Assembly: GCA_965203555.1 (NCBI GenBank)
Contig: CBDBCY010000004.1
Span: 416,001 to 480,000, forward strand
Direction of reading: 5' to 3'
DNA length: 64,000 nucleotides
Source of the DNA: Acidimicrobiia bacterium
Lineage (GTDB): Bacteria > Actinomycetota > Acidimicrobiia > Spongiisociales > ZC4RG35
Shown here piece after piece: positions 1-57,874 of this stretch. Position 1 is the stretch's first letter; every line of letters begins with the position of its first letter. A model generated the notes under the pieces. That model was given only the letters and a program-made list of their open reading frames with translations, made no database searches and was not told where the DNA came from. A program made the position numbers and the translations under genes.

Positions 1-1824
1 CTGGGCAAGGCGTTCGGGCTGCCCGGCCAGGAGTTGACCCTCCTGTCCAAGCAACTCCACTCCCACCATGCGGCGGACCTGAGATCGGAGATGCTGGAAC
101 TGCCCGCCTTCCGGGACCGGGTGGACGCCTATGGGTGGAAGAACCTTATCGAGATCTCCCCTCAGCTGATGGGAGCGCCCAAACACCTCAGCCAGCACGT
201 GGGGGGAATGATCCTCAGCAGCACTCCCATCCCGGAGATGGTTCCCGTCCGGGAAGGGGCCATCGAGGGGCGTTTCATCATGGACTGGGACAAGGACAAC
301 GTCGCCGACGCCAACTTCGCCAAGATCGACCTGCTCTCTCTGCCGGCGCTCGACCAGTTGCACGAGGCGTTGGATCTGATCGAGGAACGCGAGGGGGAAA
401 GGCCCGATATTTCCAGGATCGATCCGCAGGATCGGCGGGTTTACGAGATGATCACCGAAGGCCGGTCCAAGGGCGTGTTCCTGCTCCAGTCGCCCGCCCA
501 GTTGAAGATGGGGCGGCGCCTCCGGCCGGAGAACCTCCTGGACCTTGCCTACCAGGTGGCGCTGATTCGCCCGGGCGTGGGCGTGCAGGGGAGTTCGGTC
601 TCGCTGTTCTTGGAGAGATACCGTCACGGGGCCTCCTGGGACTACGACCATCCCTTGGAGAGGCGCTCCCTGGAGCGCGGGTACGGGATCATCGTCTGGC
701 AGGAGCAAGTCGTCCAGCTCATCATGGACGTGGCGGGAATGACCGCCGCCCAGGCCGACGAGATAAGAAGATCCTTCGCTCGTTCCAACAACCGGCACCT
801 GATAGCCATGCACTGGAAGGATTTCCTCCAAGGCGCGGAGAGACGGGGCGTCCCGGAACCTACCGCGCGGAAGATCTTCTCCAAGATCAACGGACACTAC
901 ATGTTCCCCGAATCCCACTCGCACGCCTTTGCGGTCACCGCCTACCAGGTGGCCTGGCTCAAGCGCTATCACCCACTGGAGTTCTTCACCACCCTCATCA
1001 ACAACCAGCCCATGGGGTTCTACCCGCTGGAGACCCTCAAACAGGACGCCGGGACCTTCGGCGTTCCGTTCCTCAACCCTTGCGTCAACCGCAGCGGCGT
1101 CCAATGCGCACCTGAGGACGGCGCCGTGCGGCTGGGCCTGGGGATCGTCAAAGACGTGGGAGGCCGGTCCGGGGAGACAATCGTCGAAGAGAGAAACCGA
1201 AACGGCCCCTATGACGGCGCCGGGGACCTGATCCGACGCACCGGCTTGAAGCCCCAGGCCGTGGTCTCTCTGGTGATGGCGGGCGCTCTGGACGGCCTCT
1301 CACCCAATCGCCGCACCGCCATCTGGGACGCGGGGCTGTCTGTGCGTCCCTCCCGCAACGGACAGACCGTCCTGGACATCACCCGGGGAAGCAGAAAGCC
1401 CGACCTGGCCGATTTCACCGACTATGAGAGGATGGCGAGCGAGTACCGGATCCTGGGGATCCATCCGGGAGGCCACCTCATGGAGTACCTCCGGGAAACA
1501 CTGGACGCGGAGGTGCTGACCACCGTCGAGGTGGAGGACTGCGCCGAGGATGAAGAGGTCCTGGTGGCGGGCTGGCCCATCGCCCGCCAGCACCCGCGCG
1601 GGATAGGCGGCACGGTGTTCGTGACCATCGAGGACGAGACCGGAGACGTGCAGTTGATCATCTGGCCGGACGTGTTCGCCCGCTACAAGAAGCAACTCAG
1701 AAGCCAGGTGATCCTGGCGCGGGGCGTGATCTCTCGATGGGACGGCACCACGTCGATGATCGTCTCGGCCCTGGAAGCGGTCGACGTCCCGGTCTCGATG
1801 CCCGCCGCCCATGATTGGCACTGA
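1..1824 (+). CDS. dnaE2: Error-prone DNA polymerase III alpha subunit (DnaE2/ImuC), 5'-truncated by window edge
   Basis: Motifs PKHLSQHVGG, KIDLLSL, VALIRPG, FPESHS, NNQPMGFY, C-terminal OB fold (FVTIEDETG) and short terminal AHDWH resembling the DnaE2 SRDF(H/R) tail. Confidence 0.85.
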   Translation: MGKAFGLPGQELTLLSKQLHSHHAADLRSEMLELPAFRDRVDAYGWKNLIEISPQLMGAPKHLSQHVGGMILSSTPIPEMVPVREGAIEGRFIMDWDKDNVADANFAKIDLLSLPALDQLHEALDLIEEREGERPDISRIDPQDRRVYEMITEGRSKGVFLLQSPAQLKMGRRLRPENLLDLAYQVALIRPGVGVQGSSVSLFLERYRHGASWDYDHPLERRSLERGYGIIVWQEQVVQLIMDVAGMTAAQADEIRRSFARSNNRHLIAMHWKDFLQGAERRGVPEPTARKIFSKINGHYMFPESHSHAFAVTAYQVAWLKRYHPLEFFTTLINNQPMGFYPLETLKQDAGTFGVPFLNPCVNRSGVQCAPEDGAVRLGLGIVKDVGGRSGETIVEERNRNGPYDGAGDLIRRTGLKPQAVVSLVMAGALDGLSPNRRTAIWDAGLSVRPSRNGQTVLDITRGSRKPDLADFTDYERMASEYRILGIHPGGHLMEYLRETLDAEVLTTVEVEDCAEDEEVLVAGWPIARQHPRGIGGTVFVTIEDETGDVQLIIWPDVFARYKKQLRSQVILARGVISRWDGTTSMIVSALEAVDVPVSMPAAHDWH

Positions 1825-1931
1825 TGCGAATCCCGGCGCCACGAGTCTGGATCGTATGTGTCCTGTTCAGCGCCGTTGTTGCCTCCGACAAGGGAGGCAG
1901 TGGTTGTGGCCGGTTCGCGCTGGGGAGCACC

Positions 1932-2684
1932 CTAAGGAACCCTACCGGCGCGGACGCGGCGTTCCAACGCCAACAACCGGGTTTCGGCTGTCTTGACGAT
2001 CTGAGCGGTGCGTTGCGTGTCCCGCTGAGCACAAGCGTCGGACTCGACCACCACAGCACGGGTACCGTCCCCGAGGACGATATCCGCCGCTCTGCTGCCG
2101 GGTTGGGACAACTCGACCCATACCGTGTCCCGGTCGATAGCCGCCATTGCTTGGGCGGTGATCCGGTCGCGGCGTAGCCTGGTGGCCAACAGATGATCAA
2201 ACCCGGCCCGGGTCACCGTTTCCAGATTGGCGCCCGATATGAGACCCCGGTCCGCTACCACACAGCATTCTGCCCACCGCGGACCGTTTGGACAGATCCT
2301 TCAACACCTCGGATAGGGTGGACGCGTCGTTGCCCGTGAAAACGTGATGGGCGATGGGGGATACCGTCGGTGGTGCATAACAGACCGATCACGATTTGGG
2401 GTCGGTCCGGGCGATGATCCCGCGAGCTTCCCGAACACCCGCGACGGAAAACGCTGGGAGGGTCGGGTGGAACCTTCGAAATGGGCGGACGTCAGGTCGT
2501 AGCACACCAGCCGTAGGTTGAGGTTGGTCAAATCGCGCAACTGTCCATTCTGTTGGCGATCAGCCGAAAGTACCCAGGGTCGATCACCGAAAGTACTCAC
2601 CCTGGGTTCGAACAACAGTTCTCGTGAATCCCGGTGGGATTCAAACACTCCCGACCCACCACACAGCCCCAACCAACCCTCCAA
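1932..2684 (-). pseudogene. IS1634-family transposase remnant (fragmented, frameshifted)
   Basis: Fragments in different frames: LVCYDLTSAHFEG (first DDE Asp), VADRGLISGANL (second Asp), FDHLLATRLRR, AQRDTQRTAQ; no intact ORF. Confidence 0.75.
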
Positions 2685-2956
2685 TGAAACTCCCGGAGCG
2701 GTTCAATCGAAGACATCTTTCTTTTCCCGCCCCACGTTTCAGCGAGGCCACTGGGCGTCTGTCCGTATATCGCATCCGGCCCTTGACCACGGCATTTCCG
2801 GTGGGCTGCCCGTATGCCCTGAGCGCTATTTTGAGAGGCATCCAGTAGTCGAACCGGCTGGTGAAGGTGGAATCCAAGTCCATTTGAAGAGCGCCGCTGA
2901 TTCTTCCATTCTAGATTTAGTGTTTTTTTTGACAACTTGGTGTTATGTGGTGTTGT

Positions 2957-2979
2957 TTGTCACACCTCTGGTGCATACT
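2957..2979 (+). promoter_or_regulatory. Putative PafBC/RecA-NDp-type DNA-damage promoter of the HNH gene
   Basis: TGTCAC-N10-CATACT (2958-2979), 8 nt before the ATG at 2988; spacing matches the mycobacterial TGTCGG-N10-TANNNT motif with mismatches. Confidence 0.45.
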
Positions 2980-2987
2980 GGTAAGAC

Positions 2988-4229
2988 ATGAACAGAAAAG
3001 ACATGAACGGTGCGGTGGCCAACCGGGTGCGCCTGCTGGTGCCTTCTTTGCCGGTTGCAGAAGCTTCGTTGGAGCAGTTGCGCAAGCGGTTAAAGTCCAC
3101 TGTCCGCGTTCAGAACCAGGCCGCGGCGATCCGCGCCGAGATCGTGTCGGAGTTACGCCGCCGGGAAGGCACCGAGGTGGTAGAAACCGTGTTACAAACC
3201 GACGGTCTGCTAGGCCGTCGGAAAGCACGATCAGAAGTAGAAACCGCCCGAGCATTGGAGGAACTACCAAAAACGCGGGAAGGGCTTCGGGCGGGGGAGA
3301 TCTCCCACGACAACGCGCGGATCATCGCTGGTGCCAACCAGCGGGGAACCATAGCAGAAGACGAGTTGTTGGATGATGCTCGTTCCCAGTCTCCTGACAA
3401 GTTCGCGGCGACGGTCCGCAAACACGAACAACAGCGTGCCGGAGATGATGGTGTGTCGAAGTTGGAGCATCAGCGGTCCCATCGGTTCGCCAGGATCACC
3501 ACCGACCAAGACGACGGGATGACCGTCCTGTACGGACGTTTCGATCCGGTCACCGGTGCCCGGGTGGAAACGGCCGTGTCACACATGATGAAACAACTAT
3601 GGCACAAAGAAGACCCCCGGGACCGGGCCACGGCGGGACAGAGAATGGCCGACGCCCTATCCAAACTTCTTACTCGGGAAGGAAACGGTCGGTCCCAGGA
3701 TGTGCGCCTGTTGTTGATCGCCGACTACGACACCATCAATCAACAACTGAAAGATGCCCGTCTGTCCGATGGAAACCCCATCCCCGCCCGGGCATTGCGC
3801 CACCTGGCCTGTGACGCGCAGATCCTGCCCGCTATCTTCTCAGGGTCGTCGATACCCCTGGATCTGGGACGGGCCAGACGCAAAGCCAGCCCGGCCCAAC
3901 GCGCTGCGCTCATCGCCCGCGATCAACACTGTGTCGGGTGCGGCGCGAAAGCCGCCTGGTGCCAGGCGCATCACATCGTCCACTGGGCCGACGGAGGCCC
4001 CACCGACCTGGACAACATGTGTCTGCTGTGCAGCAGATGCCACCACAAAGTACACGACAACGACTGGACAATACACAAGTCACCGGCAGGAACCTACAGC
4101 CTCCGCCGACCACCCACCCAATGGGGACGCCCACCCCGCCAACCCACCTCCCACCGCTACCCCCGCAAACGCCGACCCAACAGCCGCTACCCCCGCAAAC
4201 GCCGACCCACCATAAAACAACGAAAATAA
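2988..4229 (+). CDS. DUF222 (13E12-repeat family) HNH endonuclease
   Basis: C-terminal ARDQHCVGCG...WCQAHHIVHWADGGPTDLDNMCLLCSRCHHKVH; DUF222-like motifs (QRMADAL, LRHLACDA, PLDLGR). Confidence 0.9.
   Translation: MNRKDMNGAVANRVRLLVPSLPVAEASLEQLRKRLKSTVRVQNQAAAIRAEIVSELRRREGTEVVETVLQTDGLLGRRKARSEVETARALEELPKTREGLRAGEISHDNARIIAGANQRGTIAEDELLDDARSQSPDKFAATVRKHEQQRAGDDGVSKLEHQRSHRFARITTDQDDGMTVLYGRFDPVTGARVETAVSHMMKQLWHKEDPRDRATAGQRMADALSKLLTREGNGRSQDVRLLLIADYDTINQQLKDARLSDGNPIPARALRHLACDAQILPAIFSGSSIPLDLGRARRKASPAQRAALIARDQHCVGCGAKAAWCQAHHIVHWADGGPTDLDNMCLLCSRCHHKVHDNDWTIHKSPAGTYSLRRPPTQWGRPPRQPTSHRYPRKRRPNSRYPRKRRPTIKQRK
4154..4209 (+). repeat. Two-copy tandem repeat, 30-bp period (CCGCTACCCCCGCAAACGCCGACCCA), encoding RYPRKRRP x2
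   Basis: Identical 26-mers at 4154-4179 and 4184-4209. Confidence 0.9.
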
Positions 4230-24684: not shown

Positions 24685-24785
24685 CGTCAGGAGCCTAACC
24701 GGTGGGCCGAACACATTTTTGCATTGATATTTGCCACGCCTATTGAGACCCTGTGTTACTCTTACAAAAAGTAAAGCCGTTGAAG

Positions 24786-24962
24786 CTGCGCGGGAGAGTC
24801 TCGCTGGTCGAGACGCCGAAGGGGCAAGTCCTCCCGGGAATCTCTCAGGCAAACGGACCGCGTTGACGAGGCAATGCTGAAGAGGGCGGGCGCCACCGCC
24901 GCCGAAGGAGCAAGTTCCTTTCCCGAAAGGAGCGAAAACTCTCAGGCAAACGGGACAGCAGG
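24786..24962 (+). ncRNA. Tandem glycine riboswitch
   Basis: Two aptamers each with GAGAG/GAAGAG...GCCGAAG(G/A)GCAAG...CTCTCAGGCAAA motifs, directly upstream of gcvP. Confidence 0.95.
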
Positions 24963-52813: not shown

Positions 52814-53136
52814 GAAGATAATGCTTGGCGGTACTCTGCGAAAGCTTCACCTACTTGGAACAGAATACTTACGGACAGGGGAGGCACACCTGAACCCAAG
52901 ACCCGGTTCCCCGAGCCTGCAAATTCGTACTCGCCGCGCCTTCAGGTCCCTCTTGTCGATGTCCAAGATCCAGGCCTCAAGCCGATGGTTGAGGTCCTGC
53001 CTGGTAAGGGCCTTCGATCTGACTACTTGGAAAACCCCTTCTCAAAAGAGGGATCCCGACCCAATATCAAAGGAGGGATTCGGGCATCTCGATCCTTGTA
53101 GAGTTGCCAGGGTCCCGCAGAGTATGTCAACCACCA

Positions 53137-54252
53137 ATGCCGTCTGCTGATCCAATCCGGTCCATTCGAAGGCTTGCCGTCCTGACCTCGGGAGGGGACG
53201 CTCCCGGCATGAACGCCGCGATCGTGTCAGTGGTGAAGGTGGCGGCGAGGGCCGGCGTAGAAGTGGTGGGGGTGGAGGATGGTTACGAAGGGCTGATCAA
53301 CGGCGACCTGCGGCCTCTCGTTGAACCAGGTTCACAGACCGGAGCACTGGCGCCGATCCCGGAGTTGACCGGCGTGGGAGGTCAAGGGGGAACCATACTG
53401 GGAACGGCCCGCTGCCCGCGTTTTCAGGATCCCACCTATCGGGCCCTTGCCGCGCAGTCGCTGCGGGAAGCCGGCGTAGAGGGACTGGTGGTCATTGGTG
53501 GAAATGGTTCGATGGCGGGCGCCCATGCCTTGTGGTCGGAGCACAGGCTGCCCACCGTGGGTATTCCCGCCTCGATCGACAATGATATCGGACACACCCG
53601 AGAGGCCCTGGGGGTGGACACAGCCCTCAACACCATCGTGGAGGCCTGCGATCGCATCAGTGACACAGCCAGATCTCACCGCCGAGCTTTCGTCGTGGAA
53701 GTAATGGGGCGCGACTGCGGATATCTTGCTTTGGCGGGAGCAGTCGCAACTCGGGCCGATGCAGTTCTCCTTCCCGAGAAGAATCCCGAGCGTCACCAGG
53801 TCTTGAAGAAGCTGGAAACCATAGTCCGGCATCGACTCTCGGACCATCGGGAGAAGAAAAAGGTGCTGATCCTCAAGGCTGAAGGTGTCAAGATCCCCAC
53901 CCCAACCCTGGTGACCGATCTTGCATCGGCGGTCTCGGATATGGAGGATGTCGAGGTGAGAGCAACCGTGTTGGGACACATCGTCCGTGGAGGTGACCCC
54001 ACATTTCGTGACAGATTGCTGGCCAGTCGATTCGCTCTGGTGGCAGTTCAGTCGATTCTGGCCGGGGAGTCAGGCGTCATGGTCTGCTGGTCGGTATCCG
54101 GTCGGGGAAAGGCAACCAGTGATGCATTCGTGAGGCTTCTGTCGCTTGATTCCGTGCTGCTAGAAACCATGTCGCTGACCGAGGGAACATCCGATCTCCA
54201 GAATGAGCGGATCCAGCGTCTGGGTGCAATCCATGGCGTACTTGCATTCTGA
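53137..54252 (+). CDS. pfkA: 6-phosphofructokinase
   Basis: TSGGDAPGMN, GGTILGTAR, IGGNGS, SIDND, EVMGRDCG, LGHIVRGG. Confidence 0.93.
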   Translation: MPSADPIRSIRRLAVLTSGGDAPGMNAAIVSVVKVAARAGVEVVGVEDGYEGLINGDLRPLVEPGSQTGALAPIPELTGVGGQGGTILGTARCPRFQDPTYRALAAQSLREAGVEGLVVIGGNGSMAGAHALWSEHRLPTVGIPASIDNDIGHTREALGVDTALNTIVEACDRISDTARSHRRAFVVEVMGRDCGYLALAGAVATRADAVLLPEKNPERHQVLKKLETIVRHRLSDHREKKKVLILKAEGVKIPTPTLVTDLASAVSDMEDVEVRATVLGHIVRGGDPTFRDRLLASRFALVAVQSILAGESGVMVCWSVSGRGKATSDAFVRLLSLDSVLLETMSLTEGTSDLQNERIQRLGAIHGVLAF

Positions 54253-54543: not shown

Positions 54544-54876
54544 ATGGGCAGACCATCTGCGGATACTCTCTCCGCAGGACTCGCCGGCAACATATCAGAA
54601 GCCGAACTCCGAAAAGGGATGGGCGAGTACTCTGATCGCATTACCGACAGCGGGCCTTTCGCCTCGGGGGACACACTGTTCGCTGTGGGGCATCACACAG
54701 AAGACAGGGATGCGTGGTTTGATATCCTCACTGTCACCACGGACGACATCATGCGAGAGTGCGGCATTCCCGAGGAGGAGAGAGAGGAACAGAGATCGCT
54801 GAACCGCTCCTACGCAAGGCTTTTTCTTCGGTTCCACAACGGACCGGAAAGGACCGTCCCTCTGTTAGAGGACTGA
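54544..54876 (+). CDS. Hypothetical acidic protein ('CGIP' family, copy 1; putative antitoxin)
   Basis: TATGCT -10 box 8 nt before the ATG; C-terminus aligns with 57479..57874. Confidence 0.7.
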   Translation: MGRPSADTLSAGLAGNISEAELRKGMGEYSDRITDSGPFASGDTLFAVGHHTEDRDAWFDILTVTTDDIMRECGIPEEEREEQRSLNRSYARLFLRFHNGPERTVPLLED

Positions 54877-54895
54877 GAGCGGAAGGGGGACATTA

Positions 54896-55200
54896 GTGCC
54901 TCCCTACATGTACTGGCCATCTAAATACGCGGAGTTCGATTTCGATGAGGAGTCTGCTTCAAGAACCGCGTGTCGGGAAGCGACATCTTCTATGTTCTTT
55001 CCCTACCACCGAGAATGGTGCGTAGGTCCAGGGGCGAACCGTCGGCATACGATGTGATATACAGTGGCGGGAGGATGATCGCCCGACCGACCATAGCTGT
55101 GGGGGAACTTCCTGCGGGCCATCTTCTCGAAGTGGGGTTTCGTAGAGACTTTCGCCAACGGGGAGAGGTGTGCTACGTGTTCCACGCTCGCTATCGCTAG
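54896..55200 (+). pseudogene. BrnT/RelE-like toxin homologue (copy 1), frameshift at about 54954
   Basis: SD-like GGAAGGGGG before GTG; MPPYMYWP..DFDEES / FKNRVSGSDIFYVL...GHLLEVGFRRD...CYVFHAR. Confidence 0.5.
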
Positions 55201-55259
55201 GAAACTGCCTGGTCAAGGGGAGTTGAGTACCGACCGGGTGGTGGATGCTCCTATGTTTG

Positions 55260-56483
55260 TCAAATCCGGGTTTGGTGGGGGGTGTGGGTGGTGAGCCAGT
55301 GTTGGTATTGGGTGGCGAGTTGGTGGTTGTGGTATTGGCCTCGTTCGAGTTGTGAGAGGCGGGTTGGGTGGCTGTGGAGGGCTGTGGCGGCGCGAGCGAG
55401 GGTGATCTGGTGTTTTTGGCGTAGGCAGCGGAGATGGGGGCCGTGGGGTGTTTGGGGCGGGTCGGTCAACAGTCGGTAGACCTGGCGGGCGATGTACCGT
55501 TTCAAAGAGCGGATGATCTCTTTTCGGGTTTTTCCTTCCGCTTGTCGCCTTTGGACGTATTCGATGGTTGGTTGGTCCCAGCGCATTCGGATGGTGGCGA
55601 TGCGCCAGAGGGCGTTGTTGGCGTGGCGGTCGCCGCCGCGGTTGAGTCGGTGACGCACTATGCGTCCCGACGACGCCTGGACGGGGCTTGCGCCGCAGAG
55701 GGCGGCGAACGACGCTTCTGTGCGCATGCGGTGGGGGTTGTCACCTGCTGTGACCAGCAGAGCGGCTGCGGTGTTTGGGCCGATCCCCGCCGTGGCCAGC
55801 AGTGCCGGGTTGGCCCGGGCGCAGAGCTGTTTGATTTCGGTGTCGAGTTGTTGGATCTCCGAAGTGAGCGCCTGATGTCGGCGGGCCAGCAGGCGCAGTG
55901 TTTTCTTGGCATAGGCGACGGTGGTCTGAGCTGTGCCGGGACGATAAGCCGAGCAGACTTTCACGCGGGCTGTGGGGGACAGTCCCCCGAGTTGGTGTTT
56001 GACCTGGTCGGGAGCGGTGACCACCAGGGCGTGCAGTTGGTTGATGGCCTGGGTACGGGCCTTGGCCGCTGAACGACGAGCCACAGACAGCATCCTGATC
56101 GCTTCGACTGGTCCATTCCCGCTTTTGGGTGTCCCGGTGGCCTGCCCGCTCAGGACAGCCCGTGCCGCTGCTTGGGCGTCGGTGGCGTCGGTCTTACCCC
56201 ATCGGCGGCGCAGCTGGCGGTTGGGACGATTCACTTCCACCACCTCGACACCGATGCTCACAAGGTGGCGGGCCAGGCCGGCGCCGTAGCTGCCGGTGCC
56301 CTCTATCCCAACTTGGGCAACGTTGCCGTGTGACCCCAGCCAGGCGCCCAGCTGGCCATAACCGGCTGGGTCGGCGCTGAACGATGCCGTGCCCAACACT
56401 CGACCGGTGGCATCCACCACCGCGGCGACATGAACATCACGGTGGGTGTCCACCCCACCAAACACAACCTGATCCTCTGACAC
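55260..56483 (-). CDS. IS110 DEDD recombinase with C-terminal HTH
   Basis: GGVDTH, GIEGTG, KTDATDA (DEDD), GIGP, SPVQASSG (Tnp Ser), RLNRGGDR, RSLKRYIAR; SD GAAGGAGAGG before GTG. Confidence 0.95.
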   Translation of the reverse strand: MSEDQVVFGGVDTHRDVHVAAVVDATGRVLGTASFSADPAGYGQLGAWLGSHGNVAQVGIEGTGSYGAGLARHLVSIGVEVVEVNRPNRQLRRRWGKTDATDAQAAARAVLSGQATGTPKSGNGPVEAIRMLSVARRSAAKARTQAINQLHALVVTAPDQVKHQLGGLSPTARVKVCSAYRPGTAQTTVAYAKKTLRLLARRHQALTSEIQQLDTEIKQLCARANPALLATAGIGPNTAAALLVTAGDNPHRMRTEASFAALCGASPVQASSGRIVRHRLNRGGDRHANNALWRIATIRMRWDQPTIEYVQRRQAEGKTRKEIIRSLKRYIARQVYRLLTDPPQTPHGPHLRCLRQKHQITLARAATALHSHPTRLSQLERGQYHNHQLATQYQHWLTTHTPHQTRI

Positions 56484-56524
56484 AGCTTCCTCTCCTTCAA
56501 AGTAGAATCCGTTTCTGTTCTCCC

Positions 56525-56700
56525 TGACCCGAAAAAGCGGTTGGACGGACCACTCAAGTGGCAAAGAGCAAGGCTCCTATCAGGTCACAGCCGCCCTGTC
56601 GGGAGAGCACCGCCCCCAGGCCGGAAGCCGGCCGACAGATCCACCAAAAGGCACAACCGGCCAGGTTAGGTTCGAGTCAGACCCGCCCCGGCCTAGGGGC
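56525..56700 (-). ncRNA. Predicted IS110 bridge RNA (target-binding loop followed by donor-binding loop)
   Basis: Four segments matching left flank, right flank, right end and left end in the expected order, enclosed by GC-rich stems; boundaries approximate. Confidence 0.8.
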
Positions 56701-56779
56701 ACCTATAAGTATGAGTGGGTTAGGTTGACTGTTTTGCCCGGTTCTGTGGTCACCGGTGGAGGTTCCCACCCCCCTGACA

Positions 56780-57036
56780 TACACGACACGCAAAAGGAAG
56801 GGGGTTCTTTGTTCACGACACCTTTCGTCGCTTTGCCACCTGTGGCGTTCAGCAAGAGGCCTCATCACCGCTGAGCGGTAGATACGTTCGACCACAGCGA
56901 ACTCGGTGAACGAGTGTCCGTCGGAGGTCCACCCGAACAGGTCCCGGTTCTTGATCTGAGCGACCGCCCTTGCAAATAGGTCTCGCTCCGGACCCTCGGG
57001 AGCGTCACTGATCGCCCTGGCAAGTCCGTGAAAGTC
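56780..57036 (-). pseudogene. Unidentified coding fragment without a start codon
   Basis: Open frame DFHGLARAISDAPEGPERDLFARAVAQIKNRDLFGW...VVERIYRS looks protein-like. Confidence 0.3.
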
Positions 57037-57478: not shown

Positions 57479-57874
57479 TTATTCGTCTAAAAGGGGAATG
57501 TGATTAGGGACGTCATGCTTGTCCCAGTGCAGAATCCTTCCCAGCAGGTAGGTCCGGTAGCAGTCAAGGGCTGCTTCTCTCTGATGGTCGGGAATTCCGC
57601 ACATCTCCACCAGTTCATCCTCAGAGACAACAAACAGATCAACTGTGACAAGGTCGCCGGTTTCGCGATGGGGAATCCCCAACAACCCACTGGGCGGATT
57701 CTTAGCGACGATGTCCCTGTAATAATCGAAACCAGGGGGGTAAAACCGCGAGTCTGTTTCTGTATCGGCCTCTTGGATTCCCGGCGATTCGTCGGTTACC
57801 GAAGGACTGGCAGGCAACCAGCCGCCCCCCGCACTTCTCCCAGTCACGGTGCCGCTACGGTGTTCCAAAGCCAT
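57479..57874 (-). CDS. Hypothetical acidic protein ('CGIP' family, copy 2; putative antitoxin)
   Basis: Perfect TATAAT (57883-57888, minus strand) 8 nt before the ATG; C-terminus aligns with 54544..54876. Confidence 0.72.
   Translation of the reverse strand: MALEHRSGTVTGRSAGGGWLPASPSVTDESPGIQEADTETDSRFYPPGFDYYRDIVAKNPPSGLLGIPHRETGDLVTVDLFVVSEDELVEMCGIPDHQREAALDCYRTYLLGRILHWDKHDVPNHIPLLDE

Follow-up and report, generated by a model that had tools for sequence, protein, structure and literature searches.

The segment from position 55244 to 56716 (minus strand) of an Acidimicrobiia genome, lying within the 64,000-nucleotide stretch of DNA analyzed here (the window), is very probably an intact insertion sequence of the IS110 group whose left end encodes a predicted bridge RNA. 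The anatomy of the element, the family and catalytic residues of its protein, the conserved structure of its left end, and the covariation of its guides with the DNA that flanks each insertion are demonstrated below, and the coordinates of its features are collected in Table 1.

Bridge recombinases are under development as programmable genome-writing tools, and the design rules for them rest almost wholly on IS621 and a handful of its relatives in Proteobacteria and Firmicutes. The high-GC actinobacterial subgroup to which the present element belongs supplies about 24 guide pairs that nature has reprogrammed and whose targets are known, a compact RNA without a 5' stem-loop, and a natural marker at position 8 of the target that makes it testable which strand's information survives and whether a mismatch drives directionality. 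For genome annotation the finding is an ordinary one, namely another IS110 element with its guide RNA.

Table 1. Positions in the window of the inserted element, its junctions, its gene, and its guide segments
Feature	Position	Strand	Details
Whole inserted segment	55244–56716	minus	1473 bp; ACTCAT...GGAGCA plus terminal TC
Left target half AACCTAACCC	56717–56726	minus	CC at 56718–56717 forms target positions 8–9
Right target half CACCA	55239–55243	minus	Target positions 10–14; 5/5 complementary to RTG 56646–56642
Right end	55244–55263	minus	TTGACA (55263–55258, -35-like); left donor ATAGGAGCA (55254–55246); TC (55245–55244)
Transposase gene	55260–56483	minus	407 aa; GTG start; AAGGAG ahead at 56497–56492; identified by domains, family model, and PDB matches
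Target-binding stem-loop	56613–56699	minus	Outer stem 56699–56676 / 56636–56613; inner stem GGC 56662–56660 / GCC 56652–56650
Donor-binding stem-loop	56529–56602	minus	Outer stem 56602–56584 / 56546–56529
LTG AACCUAACC (DNA AACCTAACC)	56664–56672	minus	Identical to left flank 56726–56718, 9/9
RTG UGGUG	56639–56646	minus	UGGUG (56646–56642), then G 56641, A 56640, U 56639
LDG AUAGGAGC	56570–56580	minus	AUAGGAGC (56580–56573), then C and UU; ATAGGAGC identical to 55254–55247, 8/8
RDG UGAGU	56548–56556	minus	UGAGU (56556–56552), complementary to left-end ACTCA; followed by G 56551, G 56550, UC
Putative -10-like hexamer CATACT	56708–56713	minus	Of a presumed circle-junction promoter

Element Structure and Boundaries

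The boundaries of the element are fixed by its ends, ACTCATACT and ATAGGAGCATC, which are kept in all relatives. The start of the left end, ACTCATACT, is near-invariant in the left-end alignment, and the right end of relatives follows the pattern TTTGACAAA(C/A)ATAGGAGCA and then TC; this TC follows GGAGCA in all 24 distinct right-end contexts. The target is rebuilt exactly by a paralogous empty site (G000 C4:2786205), in which the left flank, up to and including 56717, runs straight into the right flank at 55243. The left end comprises 233 nt (56484–56716) and the right end just 16 nt (55244–55259), the latter being so short because the TGA stop codon of the transposase (55262–55260) sits within the -35-like TTGACA. 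A long left end combined with a short right end is the arrangement that Durrant et al. (2024; PMC11208160) describe for the IS110 group. Comparison of the two ends (ACTCAT... with ...GCATC) revealed no terminal inverted repeats.

The insertion site lies within a repeat of approximately 540 bp (54837–55244 plus 56717–56840) that has a paralogue in the same genome (G000 C4:2785794–2786321), to which it is 95% identical across the 412 bp of one side and 77% identical across the 128 bp of the other. Contigs from sequencing run X1 span both junctions of the window copy without differences. A joint of 55220 to 56717 with 24 letters between, seen in X1 and X2, shows 12–13 differences and corresponds to the paralogous empty site rather than to an excision product.

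The Transposase

The protein encoded by the element matches both domains of the IS110 family, with scores of 87.3 bits for PF01548 (the DEDD RuvC-like N-terminal domain; residues 10–154) and 69.6 bits for PF02371 (the C-terminal Tnp domain; residues 228–310). The NCBIfam model NF033542, "IS110 family RNA-guided transposase," is matched with 190.2 bits against a cut-off of 140. Sequence matches in the PDB include ISCro4 (structure 9t56; E 3e-12), which is the best of them, and IS621 (E 6e-11). ISCro4 is distant and is likened to the present element on the protein only, but both domains align, together with the D, E, DxxD, and SG motifs: D12, E62, D99, and D102 fall in motifs that align with ISCro4, and the serines S271/S272 belong to an SSG at 271–273 that aligns with the ISCro4 ESG. 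Numbering of the IS621 catalytic residues follows passages of Hiraizumi et al. (2024, 2026; PMC11208158, PMC13626964). Judged from these alignments, the protein is a DEDD/Ser transposase of the IS110 family.

Guide Segments in the Left End

An earlier note on this DNA had reported four segments in the non-coding region upstream of the transposase that match the junctions of the insertion, in the order LTG, RTG, LDG, and RDG. Recomputed as longest common substrings on the minus-strand reading, all four matches proved exact (LTG 9/9, RTG 5/5 plus 3, LDG 8/8, and RDG 7/7). The LTG, which is the least conserved stretch of the left-end alignment, has the sense of the left target and would therefore pair with the bottom strand. 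The RTG lies in TGGTGGAT (56646–56639), the reverse complement of 55246–55239, and the RDG in TGAGTGG (56556–56550), the reverse complement of 56718–56712. The guides of the second loop match the joined right end and left end, and both these guides and the ends are invariant in relatives.

The bases that follow the guides deserve separate description. On the RTG side, C9 lies opposite G 56641, and donor T8 and A7 lie opposite A 56640 and U 56639, respectively; the GAU following the RTG is invariant in 21 of 21 sequences. The AT of TGGTGG(AT), which had been counted as part of the target match, is complementary to the element's own end instead. On the LDG side, the C mismatches donor A7, and UU faces T8 and C9 (C9 by a G-U wobble). 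On the RDG side, G 56551 faces C9 and G 56550 faces position 8.

The matches were compared with those in 5000 dinucleotide-preserving shuffles of the 217-nt non-coding region, searched with junction words of 14–16 nt. A match of at least equal length arose by chance in 7, 310, 15, and 161 of the 5000 shuffles for LTG, RTG, LDG, and RDG, respectively, and all four matches reached at least 6 nt in 11 of 5000. In the opposite orientation, the longest match was just 5 nt for each of the four junction words. Any single match can be due to chance; four in the correct orientation and order are not.

Predicted Structure of the RNA

We propose that the left end encodes a predicted bridge RNA of about 165–175 nt with two stem-loops, the first binding the target and the second the donor. 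The structure is the RNAalifold consensus of 13 sequences, and pairs were counted on 21. In those 21 sequences, pairing is kept at 95.7% in helix 1 and 100% in helix 2, which form the target-binding stem-loop, and at 70.8% in helix 3 and 91.2% in helix 4, which form the donor-binding stem-loop. The stems that the earlier note had named are present, GGCCGG/CCGGCC in the closure of the first loop and GCGG/CCGC in that of the second. The 3-bp inner stem of the first loop has undergone compensatory changes from GC to AU in three sequences. Over all 37 pairs, 90.6% of cells are paired, compared with 37–59% when the partner column is slid, a control that by the tool's own caveat overstates support among related sequences; changes on both sides occur in eight pairs. 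How the donor loop pairs internally is ambiguous, RNAalifold joining some of the LDG to the RDG side.

The columns of the alignment that vary are the LTG and the RTG of the first loop, and ATAGGAGC and TGAGTG in the second loop are invariant; a variable first loop and a conserved second one are described for bridge RNAs by Durrant et al. (2024). Folded as a single sequence, the 237-nt region has a z-score of -1.34, and 19 of 200 shuffles were equally stable, so that its stability is not significant. No helix is predicted ahead of the first stem, which is separated from the end of the element by only 17 nt. A search of 55000–57000 against Rfam 15 returned no match at E values up to 1, and hence no family for the left end.

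Covariation of Guides with Flanking DNA

Covariation of the loop segments with the target flanks, which the earlier note had named as the check on its reading of the layout, is present across the relatives and supports the interpretation of the four segments as the guides of a bridge RNA. Relatives were gathered from 19 loci in public genomes and 4 loci in metagenomes, plus five of the genomes bearing relatives; the named source records are all assemblies of Acidimicrobiia/Acidimicrobiales or of "bacterium OM1." A regular expression anchored on conserved stem bases yielded 31 distinct insertions bearing a left end, from six Acidimicrobiia genomes and further contigs. Loci with no recognizable left end were left out (e.g., L023, L024, L034–L036, and the metagenomic L040 and L041); among the other metagenomic loci, L042 repeats the guide pair of L039, and L043 added no guide pair or left end. 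A left-end search of 301 genomes of the class found the element's own genome only, a weak negative in which the best two candidates per genome were scored.

The LTG, taken as the 9 nt just 5' of the inner stem and scored in the better of two registers, agrees with its own left flank at 9/9 positions in 11 of the 31 insertions, at 8/9 in 12, and at 7/9 in 6 (at least 7/9 in 29/31), the poorest matches being one of 6/9 and one of 3/9. The RTG, taken as the 5 nt ahead of GAU and scored in the 19 insertions with a right end, matches its right flank at 5/5 positions in 10, at 4/5 in 6 (at least 4/5 in 16/19), at 3/5 in 2, and at 1/5 in 1. Guides fit their own flanks far better than those of other elements, with means of 7.2 versus 4.0 of 8 for the LTG (13 elements) and 4.5 versus 1.3 of 5 for the RTG (11 elements), and the observed match sums were reached by none of 100,000 permutations. 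The window's own genome contains three lineages that differ in their RTG, and every one of these RTGs agrees with its own right flank at 5/5. The 31 insertions are not independent, several sharing an element lineage or a repeated target, but the covariation signal far exceeds this caveat.

These data bear directly on what else the element might be. It is highly improbable that the matches are sub-terminal repeats read on the DNA by the transposase protein, in the style of classical insertion sequences and with no guide RNA. The donor-side ATAGGAGC and TGAGTG are invariant and so resemble protein binding sites, and the lack of a significant single-sequence fold would suit such repeats too. The first-loop segments, however, match and vary with DNA outside the element across 31 insertions, which repeats of the element's own ends cannot do; stem pairing is kept through compensatory changes; and the RNA requirement of the same family has been demonstrated in vitro for IS621 (Durrant et al. 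2024). We also think it unlikely that the bridge-RNA anatomy is genuine but the window copy is an immobile fossil, whose perfect guide match records its last insertion. The exact copy is single in the genome at 100% identity, the nearest others being 87% identical, and recent mobility is therefore not established. Same-genome relatives have decayed, copy c4 being truncated and copy c5 having a shortened frame, and in two sequencing runs no contig joins the flanks of the locus without the element, the only such joint being the paralogous one. Against a fossil stand the open 407-aa frame with all catalytic motifs and a Shine-Dalgarno sequence, the unmutated state of all four guides and both ends, and the intact -35-like and -10-like hexamers.

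Weighing against the intact, RNA-guided element that we favor are the non-significant single-sequence fold, the lack of an Rfam family, the ambiguous donor loop, the singleness of the exact copy, the shared descent of some insertions, and two further points, namely the LTG register of the window copy and the insertion L031. The register of the LTG is not uniform across the family. The window copy and 13/31 insertions have their LTG duplex one base more distant from the cut, and 18/31 do not; in the shifted register, the next base (U) could wobble-pair opposite C9. The possibility that the left end begins one base sooner (CACTCAT), so bringing the LTG into register, was rejected because the extra C is present in the two empty sites of copies c2 and c3 and in the paralogous site of the window target.

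One insertion, L031:946–2440 (the same element as L021, in genome G304), occupies a site that matches its own guides at just 3/9 and 1/5 positions. Guide pairs from elsewhere in the family suit its flanks better (10/14), and L058, which lies in the same genome, bears one of them, GCCTGAATC / ACCGA. The insertion may have been guided in trans by the RNA of a relative, or it may be a half-match off-target event.

Certain members of the family have guides (LTG TTGACAAAC, with the RTG for ATAGA) directed at the right end of their own relatives, which accounts for the doubled right ends of several loci; insertions of this kind involve L070 (minus, about 1430–3030), L027:2360–2440, L036 near a doubled right end, and L075. 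One such copy is lodged between TTTGACAAAC and (A/C)TAGGAGCATC of its host element, directly after the transposase stop codon. Insertion into the right end of a host element would split the junction promoter of that host.

The Crossover Dinucleotide and Position 8

Judged from the empty sites and from 30 other insertions, the crossover falls at a single dinucleotide, which is CC (56718–56717) on the left and TC (55245–55244) on the right. Empty sites are known for four target families. The paralogue of the window copy's site reads ...AACCTAAC-CC-CACCA..., and the two sites for the target of c2 and c3 read ...CTCAT-CC-AAACC.... Those for the target of c5 read ...ATCGTCC-AC-TGGCA..., with this right target (RT) in 12 of the 15 sites listed and an AC core in all 15 of them; in the fourth family, a repeated GCCTGRAT-CC-ACCG, CC is present in 12 of 13 exact pattern matches. 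In all four families, the left junction retains the target dinucleotide and the right junction is TC. Among the insertions as a whole, the left junction is CC in 23, AC in 5, GC in 2, and TC in 1, and the right junction is TC in every distinct context. The two boundaries do not carry an identical core dinucleotide: only the C at position 9 (IS621 numbering) is common to both.

The earlier note had envisaged a shared CCAC core with a donor guide offset by 2 nt from it, and had suggested on that basis that the subgroup follows other recognition rules. With a single C common to donor and target in the empty sites, the CCAC is a coincidence, which arises because the right target half CACCA resembles ACTCA, the first bases of the left end. 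Nor is there an offset, ATAGGAGC-C-UU being contiguous with the dinucleotide except at donor position 7, which is mismatched; the pairing of AUAGGAGC extends to donor position 6, and position 7 is reported to tolerate mismatches in IS621 (Durrant et al. 2024). The subgroup departs from IS621 in respects other than the one proposed: only the C is shared, position 8 appears to behave in a handshake-like manner, and the register of the LTG can slip by one base.

At position 8, the LTG and LDG each match their own substrate. The A on the RTG side, in contrast, is complementary to the invariant donor T8 and mismatches the target C, A, or G. On the RDG side, the base at 56550 varies with target position 8, G accompanying C8 in 17 cases and U accompanying A8 in 4 and G8 in 2, with two exceptions among 25. 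The tree of left ends (21 sequences) has 12 of its 18 inner branches unresolved, too few being resolved to count independent changes at position 8.

In IS621, as described by Hiraizumi et al. (2024, 2026), the bases just 3' of the RTG and RDG act as handshake guides: once the top strands, which are cut 3' of the core, have been exchanged, they pair with the opposite substrate, and this pairing sets the directionality of the reaction. By comparison, the present alignments suggest that the core may have shrunk to a single C, that position 8 may serve as a handshake position, and that the junction footprint may reflect inheritance of top-strand information only; we regard this interpretation as evenly poised between right and wrong. 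If it is true, top-strand exchange would replace a mismatch and a G-T wobble by two Watson-Crick pairs, biasing the reaction toward insertion. Since donor and target differ at position 8, each natural insertion bears a built-in marker, with the target base at the left junction and T at the right (24/24 right ends and four empty-site families), and under the same interpretation this marker would constitute natural in vivo evidence on the disputed exchange of the bottom strand.

Integration dominated by the top strand and excision by a single strand have been reported in preprints on CazIS110-1 (Sun et al. bioRxiv 2025; 10.1101/2025.10.25.684509) and on cell-free IS621 (Xie et al. bioRxiv 2026); the 2026 preprints among our sources are 10.64898/2026.08.31.748434 and 10.64898/2026.08.14.744561. 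The top-strand model of these authors predicts footprints such as those seen here, although their work is biochemical, with donor and target cores that are apparently identical, and ours is comparative sequence analysis only. The footprint in our alignments fits that model, and a 1-bp crossover with both strands exchanged accounts for it equally well. In such a crossover, the CC at the left and TC at the right would result from double-strand exchange with the bottom strand cut between positions 8 and 9. This is a tentative but real contender: the same data fit it, position 8 never being exchanged in them, IS621 structures show both strands cleaved (Hiraizumi et al. 2024, 2026), and none of the present data speaks against it; what weighs on the other side is the report in the two preprints, for other IS110 elements, of mainly top-strand transfer or single-strand excision. 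A search of the full-text literature found no description of the geometry of the subgroup (its one-base core, handshake-type pairing at position 8, missing 5' stem-loop, and sliding LTG register); the supplementary tables of Durrant et al. (2024) may already include the subgroup itself or similar unequal cores.

Expression and Proposed Mechanism

No sigma-70-like promoter was found in the integrated copy, which fits a promoter formed only in a circular form of the element. When the ends are joined, TTGACA is followed after 17 nt (counted by hand) by CATACT, and both hexamers are conserved in relatives; in IS621, the promoter is split between the right and left ends (Durrant et al. 2024). No circle junction was seen in the contigs of four sequencing runs.

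By analogy with IS621, the following mechanism can be outlined. An excised circle would set the TTGACA of the right end 17 nt from the CATACT of the left end, and the joined promoter would switch on the transposase as well as the RNA. In the first loop, the LTG would base-pair to the left target half's bottom strand; in the second, the LDG and RDG would pair likewise with the joined right end and left end. A tetramer of the transposase holding both loops would cleave the top strands on the 3' side of the shared C, and the circle would be inserted at a site matching the first loop. For the window copy, we infer transcription, RNA binding, the chemistry of cleavage, and present-day activity.

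Comparison with Known Systems

The closest parallel is IS621 of Escherichia coli, which shares with the present element the same protein domains, a long left end that encodes the RNA, and two internal loops, each with its 5' side reading in the same sense as the left half and its 3' side complementing the right half. The guides are of similar length, the LTG being 9 nt and the RTG 5 nt beyond the core here, compared with 8–9 and 4–7 in IS621 (Durrant et al. 2024). The two systems also have in common a variable first loop and a conserved second loop, a mismatched donor position 7, and a match to the donor rather than the target in the bases that follow the RTG on its 3' side (the handshake principle). 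A promoter divided over the right and left ends, as in IS621, is predicted for the present element from its sequence.

The differences from IS621 begin with the protein, the similarity of which is just about E 1e-11. The core of IS621 is CT, whereas here it is a single C, with T at position 8 of the donor and any base there in the target, and pairing of the handshake type appears to fall at position 8 as well as position 7. A 5' stem-loop has no room here, the 17 nt ahead of the first stem holding the -10-like hexamer; in IS621 this stem-loop enhances activity and is not essential (Hiraizumi et al. 2024). The register of the LTG varies by one base in the present subgroup (13/31 insertions), and the right end is 16 nt with the stop codon inside the -35-like hexamer.

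Elements of the IS1111 group, with their seekRNAs, belong to the same transposase family and follow the same RNA-guided principle, but according to Durrant et al. (2024) their RNA lies in the right end and they have sub-terminal inverted repeats of 7–17 bp; here the RNA lies in the left end. The same authors predicted bridge RNAs in 85.7% of catalogued IS110-group elements. The kind of element described here is thus already known, and it is the geometry of the subgroup that appears to set it apart, with its one-base core, handshake-type pairing at position 8, absence of a 5' stem-loop, and sliding LTG register.

Other Copies and Genomic Context

Elsewhere in the element's own genome are three copies that are 87% identical to it and one that is 72% identical, along with several fragments and the paralogous empty site. 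The three copies at 87% (c2–c4; G000 C4:1961514–1962985, 1150576–1152047, and 2915211–2916645) all occupy the same position of another repeat, of which two empty copies exist (C4:2168665 and C4:2645596); the right end of c4 is cut off by unrelated sequence. The LTG of c2–c4 is identical to that of the window copy, and their left target differs at 2/9 positions. Copy c5 (G000 C4:2306491–2307943), the one at 72%, has the shortened frame and sits in sequence repeated about 25 times genome-wide; its empty sites read ...CACATCGTCCACTGGCAAGAC....

Two small related frames converge on the element in the window, 54544–54876 (plus strand) and 57479–57874 (minus strand). Both end in ...PLL(E/D)(D/E), and neither has a Pfam match. 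Further out, 53104–54252 (plus strand) is an open frame of 382 aa that resembles phosphofructokinase by eye only. A glycine riboswitch aptamer (RF00504) at 24781–24870 (plus strand), with 65.6 bits, is the only Rfam 15 match in the whole window.
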